Made by a program: the position numbers | Shown here: piece by piece, positions 24,001 to 35,818 of the stretch | How the letters are laid out: each line of letters starts with the position of its first letter | Numbering within the stretch: the stretch's first letter is position 1 | From: Vulcanimicrobiaceae bacterium | Lineage (GTDB): Bacteria; Vulcanimicrobiota; Vulcanimicrobiia; Vulcanimicrobiales; Vulcanimicrobiaceae | Assembly (NCBI GenBank): GCA_046262595.1 | Contig: JBHEMM010000012.1 | Location: 407 to 36,224 of the forward strand | Direction: 5' to 3' | DNA: 35,818 nucleotides

Positions 24001-27000
24001 CCGACCAACCGCATGCGCAACGTCCAGCTCGGCCGTTTGAAGGTCTACGCCGGCGCCGCGCATCCGCATGACGCACAAAAGCCGGAACCGCTGGCGTAGG
24101 AGTACCTGTGATCGATCAATTTCAAGGCACCGGCCGCCGTAAACGCTCCATCGCGCGCGTTCGCATTTCGCTCGGCCAGGGCGTCATCACCATCAACAAA
24201 CGTCCGATGGACGAATACTTTCCGCGTCCGACGCTGCAGCAGATCGTGAAGCAGCCGCTTGAAGCGACGCAAAGTTTGACACGCTTCAACATCGATGTCA
24301 AAGCCGAGGGCGGCGGAATCGCCGGGCAAGCGGGCGCCGTGCGCCACGGTATCGCGCGCGCGCTGATGGCGATGGATGAATCGCTGCGCGACGTTTTGCG
24401 CAAGCAAGGTCTGCTCACGCGCGATCCGCGCGAAAAAGAGTCGAAGAAATACGGCCGCAAACGCGCGCGCAAACGCTTCCAATTTAGCAAACGCTAAAGC
24501 GCAGCATTCCGCTCGACATCGCGTGCATGCTCGCCGGCATTCTTGCGGCGAGCGTGCGGCCGAGCGCGAAGTGGGTCGAGCAGAGTTTCAGCAACGGTTA
24601 CTATCCCGGATGGGAGCACTTTTGGAGTTCGTTCACTGCGGTGCTCCCATTTGCTTTGGGAGACGTCATCGCTCTGGCGGGCATTGCGGCCGCGCTGGGC
24701 GCGCTGCTCTTCGTCCGTCCGTGGTGGCGCGCGCTGCTCGGCATCGCGGCGCTTGCGGGATGTTTCGTTTTTTGGTTCTATGCCGGCTGGGGCTTCGGGT
24801 ACGATCGCGCACCGCTGGAGGCGCGCACCGCGTTCTCCCCGGATCGCGTGAACGACCGCACGATCGACGCGCTGCGCGCGCAGGCGGCAACGGAAGTGAA
24901 TCTGCTCGCGGCGCCGGCGCACCGCGCGAATGCCGCCGGCGCTTTCGATCTGCAGCGTTTAAACACTGCGTGGCTTCCGGTCGCGCAGCGGCTGGGCGAT
25001 GCGTGGACGCCGCACGTCGCCGCCGCCAAGCCGACGCTGGCGGGCGCGTTCATGGACCTGAACGGAACGACCGGATTCACCAATCCGTTCTCACTCGAGA
25101 CGCAGCTCGCGCCGGATCTGCTCTGGTTCGAACGTCCCTTCACGCAAGCGCACGAATGGAGCCACGCTGCGGGTTTCAACCGCGAGGACGAAGCGAACTA
25201 TATCGGCCTGCTGGCCTGTTTGCGCGACGGCGACGTGGTGGCGCAGTACTCGGGCTGGCTCGAACTGTTCTTGTATCTCCCGCGCCTGCAAAACTATCCG
25301 CATAAGATGTTCACCGGGCAGGTTTGGGCGGATTTCGCCGCGCTGCGCAAGCGCAACGCGCATTTCGTGAACCTCAACTTCTCCCGGTTTTCTTGGCACG
25401 TCTACAACTCGTATCTGCAGAGCAATCATATCGCTTCGGGCGTGCGCAACTATGACGAGGTCACGCGGCTGCTGGCGGGCATCCCGCTGGACGCCGCCGG
25501 CTTGCCTGCGACGCGTGCCGACATAAAGCGGTAATAAGTTCGTTCGATCGCGGACACATCGTGCGCGTATCGTGGACGCATGTTCGATATCTCTGGACCA
25601 CTGTTGGACGCGCTCTCCGGCGCGAGCGCGCAACTCTCGCAAGCCGCCTCGCAAACGGCTCGCGCGCAAACACCGCTGGGTACGGCGAGCTCCGACGCTG
25701 CGATGGCTTCGCTCGCTCAGCGCACGCTGTTCACGGAAGCCCTCCTGAGCGCCGTTCACGCGCGTTTGGCGGAAGTGAAAAACGTGACGCATGGGTAGTT
25801 TGGAGATGCTGCAAACGGCAGCGGCAGGCATGGAAGCGCAGCGCGCTGCGCTGGATGTGGCCGCGCGAAACATTGCCGCCGCGCAAGCCGCCGGCCCGCT
25901 CGGTTCGTACGAAAGGGCCGTACCGCAGTTTCGCCTGACGAACGATGGCGACGAACCGCAGATCGCCTTCAACGGCACGCGCGTCGAGCGCGGCAGCAGT
26001 GTAAATGCCTTGACGGAAATGGTCAGCGTCTTGAACGCCTCGCGCGCGTACGAAGCGAACGCCTCGGTTTTTGAAGCGGGCAAACAACTCGCGCTGCGCA
26101 CGATCGACATGGGCAAAGTATGAGGGTCGAAATGCTCGTTCCCGACGCCGCGCCCGCGCGCGTTACGAGCGCGCCCGATGGGAACGCGTTCACTTCCATG
26201 CTGGATGACGTTGGAGCCGTGCTCGCAAAAGCGGAAGGCGCCGAGGACGCGTTTGCCAGCGGCGGCGGCGATCTGCAATCCGCCGTGTACGAGCGCGCCC
26301 GCGCCGACGTCGCGCTCTCCGTTGCAACCGCAGCTGCGCAGCGGTCGGCACAGGCGCTGCAAACGCTCGCAAACATGCAGGTGTAAGGCTTGGACGTTGC
26401 TGCGCTGCTGGCGCGTTGGCCCTCGCTGCATCCGCGCGTCCGGGTAGTGGCCATCGGCGCTGCGGCGTTTGCAATCGTTGCAGTCGTCACGATGGCCGTC
26501 GTGACGCAAACGCAGCGCGCCGCGCTGTTCGCAGCCCCGCTGCACAGCGAGCAGCTCGCCGAGGTGCAGGAGCGCTTGGCAAGCTGGAATATTGCGTTTA
26601 CGCCGCTTGCCGACAACGTGCTCGTCGATGCCGGGCGGCGCAACGACTTGCTGCTCAAACTCTCGCTGGCGGGTGTGCCCCACGCGCATGTCGAGGACAG
26701 CAGTGAAATGCTCGGTAAAGTCGGCGCGCTGACGCCGCAAGAAGTGATCGACGCACAGACGCGCGAGGGCTTGGCCGGCGACATCGCGCTCGGATTGCGC
26801 GGAATTCAAGGCGTGCAGGACGCTACGGTGATCGTTGCGCCCGCAAAAACGGGCTCCTTCGCCGACGAGCAAAGCCGCGACGCCAGCGCCAGCGTGCGGT
26901 TGCGCACGAGCGCCGGCGCAGCGCTCTCGCCCGATGCCGTCGCGGGCGTGCGCGCCTTCGTTGCGGCGAGCGTTCCCGGTTTGACGGCCCGCAACGTGAC

Positions 27001-33000: not shown

Positions 33001-35818
33001 CTCGCTCCGCTTTTGCGGCAGACCCCCGGGGTGCGGTTGTTCGAACCGCTCGCGCCCGCGCCCAACGCGTGGAGCATCCTCGTATCGCGGTCAAGCGTGT
33101 TTCGCGCGCGTGGAGCGCGCACGGAAGCAGCGTTCGTCCTGCGGCCTGACGATGCGCTGGCACTCGCCGCGTCCGCATTCGGTGAGAAGGCACCCGCGCC
33201 GCGCGCCCTTTCCGGCTGCGAACACGCGGTATTGGAACGCGCGATGAGCGCGCTGCTTCCGGCGCTCGCGCCGCTTTGCGGCCCCGATGTGCGCGCTTGC
33301 ACGGGGAGCGGAACAGCATTTTCGGCCTACTTCGAGATCGTCATTGCCGCGTCGTCAACGTTCCGTTTGGGCGTCGCCGTTGCGGTGGATGCCGCGCCGG
33401 CAGCCGCCGGCACGCTGCGCTTAGCCGATTTGGAGGCCGTTCCAGTCGAGCTGACGGCCGAGCTGGCGCGCGGGAGCATATCGGCAAACGACGTTCTGGC
33501 CTTACGTCCGGGCGTGCTCGTGCCGATGATGACTAAGATAGGAGAGCGCGGCTGCCTTTTGCTGGGCGGCCGTGTCCTGGCGCGCGGCGCGTGCGGCGCG
33601 CTTGGCGAGCGTCATGCAATGCTGGTGGAATGATGATGATGGAACACAAGAAGAACGGGCTGACGGCGGACCAGCAAAACCTGGATCTGCTTATGAACGT
33701 TCCGCTGCAGATAACGGCGGAACTGGGCAAATGCAAGATGCCCGTTTCGGATATTCTCAAGCTCGGCACGGGCTCCGTCGTCGAACTCGACCGGCTCGCC
33801 GGCGGACCGGTGGACTTGCTCGTGAACAGCAAGCTCGTCGCGCGCGGCGAGGTGGTTGCCATCGATGAAAATTTCGGCGTGCGCGTCACCGAACTGATTC
33901 AGAAACCCGGCTGACATAACGCGGCAACATCCGTGCGCTACGCTTGCGCTATGGATGGACTGCTCGCAATCGCCAATCACGCGCGTGCCACGCTGCCGCT
34001 CGACGTCTTAGCGGCACTCACCCTGCTCTCAATCGCTCCCTTCGTGCTCGTGATGTCCACCTCGTTCGTGCGCATCGTGGTCGTGCTCTCGATCGTGCGT
34101 TCGGCAATCGGGGCGGCTGCGCTGCCTCCGAACACGGTTTTGACGGGGCTTGCGCTCATGCTCACGCTCGCGATTATGTCGCCCGCGCTCACGCGCATCA
34201 ACGAGCAGGCAGTGCAGCCGTATGCGCGCGGCGCGCTCTCGCAGTCGCAGTTCGTCACCCGGGCCGCCGCGCCGCTGCGCGAGTTCATGCTGCGCCAGAC
34301 GCATCTGGCCGACCTCGCGCTGTTCGAGCGCGTCGCCCGGCGGCCGTCGGAGGCGCCCGCGCACGCGCCGCTGAGCGTGGTGGTTCCGGCGTTTGTCGTC
34401 GGCGAACTGCGCGATGCATTTGCGATAGGACTCGCGCTGTATCTGCCGTTCGTCGCTATCGATCTAGCAGTCGCCTCGATTTTGATGGGCCTGGGCATGT
34501 TCATGCTCAGTCCGCCGGTGATTTCGCTGCCCGCGAAGTTGCTGCTATTCGTTATGGTGGACGGGTGGGCGCTCGTCTGCGGAGGCCTTGCAAGCTCGTT
34601 TAGATAACGTGCGCCGCATGCGCATCACGCACGCGCTGGCGACGCAGCGGCCGTTTTTCTCGTTCGAGTTTTTTCCGCCGCGTACGGACGAAGCACACCG
34701 CCACCTGCTCGAGGCCGCGTGGACGCTGCGCGCGCTGCGGCCTGCATTTGTTTCGGTGACGTACGGCGCGGGCGGCTCCACGCGCGCCCGCACGATTGAA
34801 GTTTCGAAGCAGATGCAAAGCGAGATCGGGTTAAACGTGATGGCGCACGTGACGTGCTCGGGTTCCTCACGCGCCGACCTGCGCGGCGTGCTCAACGATT
34901 TGGAAGCCGCCGGGATTCAAAACGTGCTTGCATTACGCGGCGATCCGCCCAAGGATGCGGCCGCATTCGAACCCGCGGCAAACGGTTTTTCCTACGCGAA
35001 CGAACTCGTCGCGATGCTCAAGCGGAACTACCGGTTCTGCATCGGCGGCGCGTGTTATCCGGAGAAACATATCGAAGCGGCCAGCTTTGCGGACGACCTG
35101 CAGTATCTCAAAATGAAGGTCGATGCCGGCGCCGAGTTCTTGATCACGCAGCTGTTCTTCGATAACGATAAATATTTTGCGTTCGTCGAGAAAGTGCGGC
35201 GCGCCGGCGTGAGGGTGCCGGTGCTGCCGGGCATCATGCCGATCACGAATTTCGAGCAGATCCGGCGTTTCACCGCGATGTGCGGCGCGACGGTGCCGCC
35301 GAAACTGCTCGCGGAGCTGGAAGCGCGTCGAGACGATCCGGAAGCTATCCAAGATTTGGGCGTCGCATTCGCGACGCTTCAGGCGGCGGAGTTGCTCGCG
35401 CGCGGAGCGCCCGGCATTCATTTTTACACGCTGAACAAATCGCCCGCGACGCGCGCCATTGTCAGCGCGCTGCTTGCGGCAACCGCGTGGAGATCGTTCA
35501 CACCACGGCCGTAAGCCGGTAACAATCGGGCGTTACGCTAACGCCATGACCGCATTCGAAGCGCTTCTTCGTGAGGCCCTGGTGGTGACCGCGGTGCTGT
35601 GCTTACCGGTCTTGGGTATCGCCACCCTTGTCGGCACCGCCGTCGCGGTCTTGCAAGCGGCAACGCAAGTGCAGGAGCAGACGCTCTCGCTGCTGCCCAA
35701 ACTGCTTGCTGTCGGTTTGGCGCTCGCCGCGTTCGGCAGCTTCGGACTGCACCTTTGCGCGCGGCTTTTCGGCGACGTGGTCGCACAGATTCCCGGATTG
35801 GTGCGCGGTTGAACGCCG

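Follow-up and report, generated by a model that had tools for sequence, protein, structure and literature searches.

What purpose might be served by a second, much smaller set of flagellar-type genes in a bacterium that already has a complete one, and why is the smaller set also found in relatives without flagellin? The question is raised by an operon on contig JBHEMM010000012.1 of a member of the Vulcanimicrobiaceae, the larger part of which lies in the 35,818-nucleotide stretch analysed here (the window).

Composition of the operon

The operon spans about 14.3 kb and encompasses 18 genes, 15 of which occupy window positions 25580-35818 on the + strand. FliR, FlhB (with NPTH) and FlhA lie past the window end, at contig positions 36034-39905, and are followed by SecD and SecF. 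Within the window the order is g964, FlgC-like, FliE, FliF with a piece of FliG_M, FliH, a short FliI, a lytic transglycosylase (SLT), an aspartic protease, g972, g973, a FliM/N-like protein (FliM2), FliN, FliP, metF and FliQ, and Pfam and NCBIfam profile searches bear out this content and order as given in the initial annotation. Genes overlap by 4-8 nt at 8 of the 14 boundaries in the window, and metF is flanked by gaps of 10 and 31 nt. No FliJ or FliO is found in the operon, and its proteins gave no match to SctD, SctC or SctF (Pfam, NCBIfam), nor to a secretin, needle or translocon. The only products to pass NCBIfam equivalog cut-offs are FliP, FliN and MetF, in keeping with the scores first quoted.

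The operon starts not at 25604, as first annotated, but at 25580 with g964 (25580..25798, +), whose MFD start is kept in 8/8 orthologues. This 72-residue protein sits in the FlgB position before FlgC and is possibly a FlgB remnant. It is conserved across all eight aligned orthologues; Pfam and NCBIfam gave no match, and a FlgB profile matches weakly, over 32 columns of the C-terminal helix (E 0.0091, probability 4.5%). It is followed by a FlgC-like proximal rod protein of 110 aa (25791..26123, +; Flg_bbr_C 32.8 bits; TIGR01395 58.2 bits, with the cut-off of 102 not reached) and a FliE-like protein of 88 aa (26120..26386, +; PF02049 27 bits; TIGR00205 27.6 bits, below the cut-off of 30).

The MS-ring protein FliF (26390..27841, +) harbors YscJ_FliF (91.4 bits) and YscJ_FliF_C (45.2 bits) domains and ends, at its C-terminus, in a fused first half of the FliG middle domain (FliG_M, 26.0 bits at aa 419-466, all Pfam). 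The fusion is conserved among orthologues, and in a set of 10 of them this C-terminal segment is the best-conserved part of the protein; it carries EPPH where kin FliG proteins have EHPQ or ELPQ. Next come a FliH-like protein of 161 aa (27834..28319, +; PF02108 39.8 bits), with its start placed from the overlap with the end of fliF, and a short FliI/SctN-type ATPase of 380 aa (28316..29458, +; ATP-synt_ab 198 bits). The translation of the latter contains Walker A, GERGRE and Walker B; the N- and C-terminal domain models of Pfam found no match in it.

Further downstream, FliM2 (32869..33633, +; FliMN_C 42.8 bits) covers the middle and C-terminal domains of FliM, with ~55 aa missing at the N-terminus. 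Alignment with full-length FliM by hhalign (probability 96.6%, E 6.8e-10, 222 columns) pairs aa 37-253 with FliM 58-324, and by this comparison FliM2 is a FliM that lacks its N-terminus. FliN (94 aa; 33630..33914, +) scores 89.7 bits for FliMN_C and 103.7 bits for TIGR02480, above the cut-off of 84. The export-gate subunits are FliP (33951..34607, +; PF00813 241.6 bits; TIGR01103 231.7 bits, above 217.45) and FliQ (35546..35812, +; Bac_export_3 72.4 bits).

Two proteins in the middle of the operon bear on whether anything is built beyond the rod. To say that the system has no hook goes too far, since g973 (32189..32872, +; 227 aa) is homologous to the short FlgE of the phylum: its family of nine sequences aligns with short FlgE-like proteins from other classes (hhalign, probability 99.3%, E 5.2e-20, 193 columns). 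The protein, which is without the canonical N-terminal motif, occupies the FlgE-like place of a fuller operon found elsewhere in the phylum, and by profile comparison it is a divergent FlgE, or hook-type axial, homologue. The neighboring g972 (31653..32195, +; 180 aa) had been proposed as a FliK/SctP-like ruler. Its place is that of FliK in the fuller operon, and when its AF2 model was compared with 48,161 chains the top match was the PscP switch domain (5cuk_A, Z 5.5), with FliK-C (2rrl) at rank 18 (Z 4.3); the model is poor overall (pLDDT 53), the C-terminal domain reaching 70-79. On the sequence side, hhalign against FliK was not significant (E 0.25) and no Pfam or NCBIfam family matched. 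A ruler or switch protein is a possible assignment for g972, suggested by position and predicted fold.

Three genes are variable or lineage-specific inserts. The SLT gene (29455..30024, +; PF01464 102.6 bits) is present at this place in 2/5 closed genomes, absent from the other three, and present in 4/4 genomes of genus g71; in another class, whose operon is fuller, it comes after FliJ. The aspartic protease (29960..31621, +; 553 aa from the given start) has two lobes, the first matching Asp_protease_2 at 59.7 bits and the second at 18.5 bits (33.6 bits in the G266 orthologue). As first described, its fold appears to be pepsin-like: the translation shows two DTG motifs and a signal-peptide-like N-terminus, and the AF2 model (pLDDT 76.4) matches chymosin, plasmepsin and BACE1 in Foldseek at E about 1e-9, so that a secreted, bilobal enzyme is predicted. 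It is not in the operon in any of the four g71 genomes examined. Finally, metF (34618..35514, +; TIGR00676 350.3 bits, above 293.7) encodes methylenetetrahydrofolate reductase and is the sole copy found in this 89.7%-complete assembly. Its position inside the operon stands for the family, where it separates fliP and fliQ in 9/9 genomes whose fliP-fliQ stretch was read and precedes fliQ in a tenth locus, L068, which begins too late to show fliP. It does not extend to G266, of the sister family, nor to G207, G282 and G151, in which the operon is split. metF is a housekeeping gene inserted in the operon, and lies inside it only in this family.

Distribution and conservation

FlhA homologues (FHIPEP) fall into two score ranges, about 837-881 bits (class 1) and 637-685 bits (class 2). 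Both classes recur across the family, as the initial annotation had it: FHIPEP is found in 143 of 151 genomes and flagellin in 85. The present genome has one of each (848.9 and 660.1 bits), together with flagellin genes and a complete class-1 operon including FliG, MotB, FlgD and FlgE. Among the 66 flagellin-negative genomes, the best FHIPEP match falls in the class-2 range in 48, and in 45 it is the single match, which enlarges the earlier tally of such genomes.

Five closed flagellin-negative genomes and four g71 genomes share this operon order. FliG_C and FlgI (P ring) were each found in 0/7 closed flagellin-negative genomes against 5/5 closed flagellated kin, and MotB_plug in none of the five closed flagellin-negative genomes searched, with a model that detects the class-1 MotB of this genome at 63.6 bits. 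The operon is thus independent of flagellin, as had been claimed. A cultured relative is reported to lack both flagella and a flagellin gene and yet to carry a fliN gene (PMC9758169). No outer-membrane conduit was found, the P ring being absent, although no search aimed at a secretin was made. Purifying selection on it is supported by dN/dS values of 0.04-0.37 in all 16 flagellar-type operon genes measured (FlgC-like 0.04-0.07; class-2 FlhA 0.09-0.12; g964 0.11-0.29; g973 0.14-0.31), a range that includes the flagellin-negative pair G136/G113 and is rough because dS is about 1-2, near saturation.

A second conserved locus (contig C37:2148-4266) encodes a FliA-like sigma factor along with FlgF-like and FlgG-like rod proteins (FlgF2, FlgG2). 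All 32 of 32 flagellin-negative genomes with class 2 carry an intact FlgG2 (56-63% identity), and of five genomes without FHIPEP four have it missing or broken; G132 retains FlgG2, with no FlhA found.

An alternative view would treat the operon as a second flagellar set, accessory or in decay, for which the complete set supplies FliG, stator, hook cap and filament in trans, and which elsewhere is near loss. The complete class-1 operon and flagellins of this genome would fit, as would a broken FlgG2 in G092 and the eight family genomes in which FHIPEP was not found; five of these eight have a completeness of 90% or more, which indicates that loss of the system is possible. This explanation is nevertheless improbable given the intact, ordered operons of seven closed genomes without flagellin, FliG_C or FlgI, in whose listed class-2 FlhA frames no stops were seen, and dN/dS well under 1 for every gene, unnamed ones included. 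The reduced form is, moreover, common to three families of the class and so is old.

Ancestry of the export apparatus

The profile scores quoted in the initial annotation were reproduced, and two of them lean away from the flagellum: FliI scores higher on SctN than on FliI (304.5 vs 279.3 bits, both far below cut-offs) and FlhB higher on SctU than on FlhB (219.9 vs 187.2 bits), whereas FlhA prefers the FlhA model to SctV (631.4 vs 494.5 bits; all NCBIfam). A FastTree run also put the clade next to SctV (support 81). A diverged injectisome-type, non-flagellar T3SS is nonetheless highly improbable. The scores concerned are all far under the cut-offs, and the operon keeps FlgC, FliE, FliF and a FlgE-like protein, with SctD, SctC and SctF unmatched. 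In an FlhA tree under a site-heterogeneous model SctV is split from all 68 other rows with support 100, class 2 being on the flagellar side, and the Sct proteins are likewise apart (support 99) in a FliP+FlhB tree; both trees come from quick searches, with SH-aLRT as the only measure of support. This agrees with the earlier placement of the operon outside the injectisome clade.

In the FlhA tree, class 2 is nested through f1, f2 and f3-type sequences and then other classes of the phylum (supports 100, 100 and 99), that is, from family to order to class to other classes, with class 1 elsewhere. The earlier proposal of a split from the resident flagellar set by duplication is not borne out, since class 2 belongs to a phylum-specific FlhA lineage, away from the organism's own flagellar FlhA, which argues against a recent duplicate. 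In the free FliP+FlhB tree, class 2 groups with three Actinomycetota (support 94), apart from the clade of the other classes; an AU test on these proteins does not reject the phylum clade (p-AU 0.509), and the FliI tree shows no resolved branching. From the rank-nested FlhA pattern, the operon looks like an old flagellar-type locus of the Eremiobacterota (Vulcanimicrobiota) that has been pared down further, and the flagellin-linked set appears to have a separate history.

The fuller operon (L108, G154), from another class, shows the same gene order, with SLT after the ATPase genes and a short FlgE-like protein, and its FlhA lineage is the sister group of class 2 (support 99). Unlike the system here, L108 retains an entire FliG (N, M and C), FliJ, a recognizable FliK, FliO and a full FliM, and with 799.6 bits its FlhA clears the equivalog cut-off of the FlhA model, which the class-2 FlhA does not. 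In the class of the window, the lineage has lost FliJ and FliO, the N-terminus of FliM, and the N- and C-terminal domains of FliG. No flagellin was found in the 19 genomes of the L108/G154 family; for families with the fuller operon the counts are 0/19 (f6), 0/15 (f3) and 0/6 (f13).

Known counterparts and probable role

The closest known cases are the flagellin-less fT3SS of Lysobacter and the hook-basal bodies of Buchnera. Like the present organism, Lysobacter is a free-living soil bacterium with export-gate, FliI, MS-ring, FliN, rod and hook genes, there without a functional flagellin. According to the Lysobacter paper, the genes are expressed, they export FlgD and non-flagellar proteins, and they influence type IV pilus motility. 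The paper describes the Lysobacter set as what remains of the single flagellar system of that organism, still with flgH, flgI and flgD; the system here is an old lineage of its own, which flagellated members carry in addition to a complete and distinct flagellar set, with a FliF-FliG_M fusion and without FlgI or FliG_C. The hook-basal-body complexes of Buchnera aphidicola likewise combine basal-body and export genes without a filament and are thought to serve transport, not motility (PMC8109811); Buchnera lives as an obligate endosymbiont and its genome is reduced, unlike these free-living lineages across the phylum, in which more of the C ring is lost.

Among non-flagellar systems, the Myxococcales "Myxo" or needleless T3SS* is also a secretin-less, needle-less core of free-living soil bacteria (PMC3459982, PMC12075869). 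In PMC3459982, Abby and Rocha describe it as a non-motile flagellum derivative that kept translocation, place it in the NF-T3SS clade and record no FlgBCDEK or FliEG. The system here has FlgC, FliE, FlgF/G-like and FlgE-like proteins and lies on the flagellar side of the FlhA tree, in which the Archangium FlhA/SctV homologues fall in the SctV clade. Its export gate, ATPase complex and SpoA-type cytoplasmic proteins have homologues in injectisomes. A lytic transglycosylase is also a trait of injectisome loci. The present system differs from injectisomes in having no secretin, SctD, needle or translocon match in the operon, and in FlhA, FliP and FlhB that lie outside the Sct clades.

A basal-body-like structure might instead have a role other than cargo secretion, acting as an envelope anchor or sensor (a periplasmic rod/hook stub), as a checkpoint controlling the neighboring FliA-like sigma factor, or as a modulator of type IV pili. 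The missing FlgI of the closed flagellin-negative genomes is consistent with a stub, and a FliA/WhiG-type sigma factor adjoins FlgF2/FlgG2 in 6/6 genomes examined. FT3SS genes are reported to affect twitching in Lysobacter enzymogenes OH11 (PMC7688988), and the cultured relative moves by type IV pili (PMC9758169). Such a role is rather unlikely, as the ATPase, the NPTH-bearing FlhB and the full gate are under strong constraint, which fits active export, and the regions upstream of the two loci showed no sigma-28-type promoter in common. No FlgM-like anti-sigma factor was found either, though no search aimed at one was made.

The two loci probably encode a reduced, flagellin-independent, non-rotating flagellar-type basal body and type III export apparatus, of an Eremiobacterota-specific lineage that, on gene content and FlhA phylogeny, is separate from both the flagellin-linked set of the same genomes and the injectisomes. 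In such a device the FliPQR-FlhBA gate would sit within the FliF ring, FliM2 and FliN would be held directly by the half FliG middle domain on FliF, with no torque-generating part, and FliH-FliI would feed substrates to the gate. FliE, FlgC and the FlgF- and FlgG-like proteins would form a rod, helped through the wall by SLT where present, g973 would add a short hook-like tip, and FlhB, perhaps with g972, would switch export to later substrates. This soil bacterium and most of its relatives, some without a flagellin gene, retain a cut-down flagellar set that covers the gate, the membrane ring, a short rod and a hook-like piece but neither motor nor filament, and which most likely builds a non-rotating, flagellum-derived device for the export of a putative cargo.

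Layout of the operon and of its second locus

The part of the operon inside the window occupies the plus strand from position 25580 to the window's end at 35818 and comprises 15 genes by their open reading frames and starts, with overlaps of 4-8 nt at 8 of the 14 gene junctions. Pfam and NCBIfam matches give the gene order as FlgC-like rod protein, FliE, FliF, FliH, FliI/SctN ATPase, SLT transglycosylase, aspartic protease, g972, g973, a FliM/N-type protein, FliN, FliP, metF and FliQ, to which the contig beyond the window adds FliR, FlhB, FlhA, SecD and SecF. By the same searches the full export gate (FliP, FliQ, FliR, FlhB and FlhA) is present; an NPTH site can be read in the translation of FlhB, and FlhA scores 660.1 bits against the FHIPEP model. 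Within fliR, a little beyond the window (contig C12, about 36235-36244), lies a scaffold gap of 10 N, which leaves the gene incomplete in the assembly. The ATPase is a protein of 380 aa of which the central domain alone is recognised, with Walker motifs legible in the translation, and it is accompanied by FliH; FliJ finds no Pfam or NCBIfam match among the operon proteins. The bit scores quoted in the initial annotation were reproduced exactly with NCBIfam. Neither Pfam nor NCBIfam gave a match to the secretin SctC, the inner ring protein SctD or the needle protein SctF in the 15 proteins of the window or in FlhB and FlhA.

The same genome carries a second FlhA, of 848.9 bits, on contig C24, within an ordinary complete flagellar operon that includes FliG with its N, M and C domains, FliJ, FlgD, a 605-aa FlgE, MotB, full FliM and FliO. 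The flagellin genes of the genome are linked to this higher-scoring set, here called class 1, and the set that begins in the window is called class 2 (its proteins are marked with the suffix 2). The class-1 operon also holds an ORF with a glutamine-amidotransferase domain between the fliJ region and flgD (locus L113:16904-18436) and a PilZ-domain gene after flhA (L113:413-1156).

Searches with axial-protein motifs located a further gene pair, encoding a FlgF-like protein of about 200 aa and a FlgG-like protein of about 240 aa; in each of the five closed genomes, about 100-150 kb separate it from the operon. The pair is followed by a FliA/WhiG-type sigma factor and neighboured by leuB, divIVA and lgt; in the window's genome this second locus lies on contig C37, besides the class-1 FlgF/G genes on C5. 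In all 32 flagellin-negative genomes with class 2, FlgG2 is intact, and in five genomes without FHIPEP it is absent (two), represented by a weak FlgF-like match only (one), broken (one) or intact (one); FlgG2 and FHIPEP are thus lost together, which links the second locus to the operon. Downstream of the sigma factor on C37 there is also an Xre-like antitoxin/RES-domain toxin pair (L115:4786-5897).

A pattern scan of the operon returned 15 terminator-like sites against 13.4±4.4 expected and 3 promoter-like sites against 1.2±1.2 expected, and so speaks neither for nor against promoters or terminators within the operon. Inspection by eye, with no control, revealed no sigma-28-type motif in front of either g964 or FlgF2. 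The same inspection showed a -10-like hexamer, TAnnAT, which precedes the start codon ATG of g964 by 6-7 nt (window 25545-25580) in eight of eight orthologues and also stands before FlgF2 in four of four (L115:2110-2148); this suggests leaderless transcripts. Between rpsI and the operon lies a 335-aa ORF (window 24527-25534); of the nine family genomes read from rpsI to the operon, eight keep it at this place, and in the ninth, G004, none was found at that position.

Axial, ring and variable members

The axial proteins of the rod are divided between the two loci, with the FlgC-like protein and FliE in the operon and the FlgF-like and FlgG-like proteins at the second locus. The place of FlgB is taken by g964, which has weak similarity to FlgB (hhalign E 0.0091). 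In other classes of the phylum there are short FlgE-like proteins, of 271-273 aa, with which the g973 family aligns (hhalign probability 99.3%, E 5.2e-20); the g973 product is accordingly a predicted FlgE that lacks the canonical N-terminal motif. Neither the hook cap FlgD nor junction proteins occur among the matches of the PF00460 and PF06429 searches. The place of FliK is occupied by g972, for which profile comparison with FliK by hhalign was not significant; the top fold match of its low-confidence predicted model is the switch domain of PscP (Z 5.5), a likeness that we treat as a lead only.

At the cytoplasmic ring, FliF ends in ~65 residues that correspond to positions 1-48 of the FliG middle domain (FliG_M), and this piece is almost invariant over ten orthologues. 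FliM2 aligns with FliM at a probability of 96.6% (hhalign, E 6.8e-10) and is a FliM without its first ~55 residues.

Three members of the operon are more variable in presence or position. The protease contains two DTG motifs, with D298, G300, D431, T432 and G433 invariant in seven orthologues; its first lobe matches Asp_protease_2 at 59.7 bits and its second at 18.5-33.6 bits, and BLASTP of one lobe against the other was not significant. An AF2 model (pLDDT 76.4) retrieves chymosin, plasmepsin II and BACE1 with Foldseek (E about 1e-9, TM 0.4-0.57 by target). With two lobes, two DTG motifs and a modelled bilobal fold, the protein is a putative pepsin-like aspartic protease of clan AA. Four genomes of g71, a flagellin-less genus of the family, have the operon without this protease, and three distant paralogues of it (~25-27% identity) are found in the window's genome on contigs C30, C19 and C48. 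The SLT transglycosylase is missing in three of the five closed genomes.

The metF gene scores 350.3 bits with TIGR00676, over the equivalog cut-off of 293.7, and is the sole copy found in the assembly. It stands between fliP and fliQ in all nine family genomes in which that stretch was read, and before fliQ at a tenth locus (L068) that starts too late to show fliP; it is not between them in a genome of the sister family, nor in the split-operon genomes G207, G282 and G151. Its gaps to its neighbours are 10 and 31 nt, and this spacing suggests that the part of the operon around metF is transcribed during ordinary growth. Insertions were observed in two closed genomes, one of ~7.6 kb between fliQ and metF (G024, L010:5962-13615) and one of ~2.3 kb between the protease and g972 (G004, L011:8031-10358).

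Distribution, selection and phylogeny

The family tally covers 151 genomes, that of the window included; this tally and the FlhA and flagellin counts for other families take in 13 genomes flagged as unpublished, for counts only. FHIPEP is found in 143 of the 151, in two score classes, and Flagellin_N in 85, among which the best FlhA match is of class 1 in 76. The 66 flagellin-negative genomes have a best match in the class-2 range in 48 cases (a single match in 45), a partial match in 9, none in 8 and a class-1 match in 1. Flagellin (PF00669) was not found in the closed operon carriers G024, G004, G006, G015 and G125, nor in any of 44 genomes of the operon-carrying genus g71. A single FlhA occurs in each of the five closed flagellin-negative genomes, with 65-74% identity to that of the window's operon; it belongs to an operon whose order of genes is unchanged from rpsI through secD. 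The first protein search listed at least 120 matches, all of them close kin at 67-100% identity. For the cultured member of the family, its published description (PMC9758169) reports no flagella and no flagellin gene, and Table S8 there gives one flagellar gene, fliN.

Selection was estimated by the Nei-Gojobori method in four genomes of g71, where dS is about 1-2 and the dN/dS values are therefore rough: 0.09-0.12 for FlhA2 and 0.04-0.07 for FlgC2, 0.11-0.29 for g964, 0.24-0.37 for g972 and 0.14-0.31 for g973 among the genes without family match, and 0.09-0.13 for rpsI and 0.05-0.11 for metF as comparison genes.

In another class of the phylum (Eremiobacterota, or Vulcanimicrobiota) an operon in the same order, L108, has more parts: FliE, FliF, full FliG, FliH, full FliI, FliJ, SLT, FliK, a FlgE-like protein, full FliM, two FliN, FliO, FliPQR and FlhBA. 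This fuller form is likewise flagellin-independent: searches of families f6, f3 and f13 yielded no flagellin in 19, 15 and 6 genomes, respectively, and an FlhA homologue in 19 of 19, 14 of 15 and 6 of 6; in G199, a different FlhA has the flagellins 14 kb away from it. Genomes of the f3 type carry the reduced operon in two halves, one close to rpsI and one ahead of secDF, the same genes that flank the operon in the window's family. Two f3-type sequences, P0123 and L025 (G151), are labelled as other phyla ('Candidatus Binatus sp.' and 'uncultured proteobacterium'); G151 has the rpsI and secDF flanks too, its RpsI and that of the window share 72% identity, and these labels may be wrong. Extra genes whose match to FlhA is confined to its C-terminal cytoplasmic half (query ~345-700) also occur in other classes of the phylum, in frames 379-1024 aa long, such as G154:C1:468285-469280, G153:C48:56422-57438 and G199:C6:529368-530387, among others.

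Outgroups for the trees came from a representative search and a genome scan, and named SctV and FlhA sequences from annotated plasmid loci. The FlhA tree (IQ-TREE, LG+C20 PMSF, quick search, SH-aLRT support) has 78 rows. Of 80 scanned loci, 46 were picked for their completeness and to spread the sampling over taxa; 12 of 150 representatives, 13 Eremiobacterota rows and 7 named references make up the rest. The SctV clade, with Archangium and a Chlamydiales genome inside it, stands apart from the 68 other rows with support of 100. Class 2 of the family groups with that of the sister family (support 100), the two join the f3-type sequences (support 100, on a branch of 0.6), and the whole is sister to the FlhAs of other classes of the phylum (support 99). 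The class-1 FlhA of the window's genome falls elsewhere, without a settled position among Bacillota, KSB1, Actinomycetota and Chloroflexota. The operon FlhA also scores higher with the NCBIfam FlhA model than with that for SctV, and both lines of sequence evidence place it with flagellar FlhA, not SctV. A FastTree of 153 FlhA rows had set the class-2 clade beside SctV (support 81); the site-heterogeneous tree contradicts this neighbourhood, and the earlier placement is treated as long-branch attraction.

The second marker, FliP+FlhB, comprised 45 rows after 12 loci with one gene missing or short coverage were dropped. It again separates the Sct proteins (support 99) and unites class 2 with the f3 type (support 100); in both trees the core proteins concerned fall outside the Sct clades. 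In the free tree the long class-2/f3-type branch joins three Actinomycetota with support of 94; constraining the Eremiobacterota-specific rows together is better by 0.67 log-likelihood units (p-AU 0.509), and an Eremiobacterota-specific clade is therefore not rejected by these data. A FliI tree of 18 rows with ATP-synthase outgroups gave no resolution.

A predicted export machine and its relatives

Measured against the flagellum as a motility organelle, the flagellin-negative operon carriers searched gave no match to flagellin, FliG_C or MotB_plug; rod and hook axial proteins are present. FliG_C and FlgI were found in none of seven closed flagellin-negative genomes and in one copy each in all five closed flagellated genomes, and MotB_plug in none of the five closed flagellin-negative genomes searched. 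No P ring was thus found, and this speaks for a structural or regulatory role of the machine, an explanation that we consider unlikely. The evidence fits, as the reading preferred here, a basal body that does not rotate and bears a rod and a short hook-type tip, together with an export apparatus predicted to be working. The FliG_M piece built into FliF would hold the C-ring proteins, and the machine would export its own axial parts first and then other cargo.

From an injectisome the system differs in having no SctC, SctD or SctF in the protein set searched, and in the position of its FlhA and FliP+FlhB outside the Sct clades. The accepted scenario for injectisome origin holds that a flagellum first loses motility and keeps protein translocation (Abby and Rocha 2012, PMC3459982); as described there, the Myxococcales systems have no secretin and are without the axial proteins that the present system keeps. 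Flagellin-less flagellar type III systems kept for other uses are reported for Lysobacter enzymogenes OH11 (PMC7688988) and Buchnera (PMC8109811), and that concept is already known. Openly available literature on flagella or type III secretion in Vulcanimicrobium, Eremiobacterota or WPS-2 yielded no account of the system itself. What is new here is its age and spread across the phylum, the fact that a separate flagellum exists beside it, a reduction that is graded from class to class, and the FliF-FliG_M fusion.

We tentatively propose, as a reading that is possible though still somewhat doubtful, an ancient, phylum-wide and flagellin-independent machine of the Eremiobacterota that derives from the hook-basal body and evolved beside the true flagellum, not by recent flagellum loss. 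The window's class would have simplified it to a motor-less core in which FliF bears a FliM-binding piece of FliG, and the machine would be a second, independent living example of the proposed first step in the origin of injectisomes, in which motility parts are lost and export is kept. Extant examples of such a stage are few, and belong either to the injectisome clade (Myxococcales) or to recent remnants (Lysobacter and Buchnera). An abundant soil phylum would here provide a graded series, with the fuller form in some classes and the stripped form in others; some species combine the stripped form with an ordinary flagellum, and others have it on its own. The family has a cultured representative without flagella, which opens the system to experiment, and the natural FliF-FliG_M fusion is relevant to the way in which the MS ring holds the C-ring.
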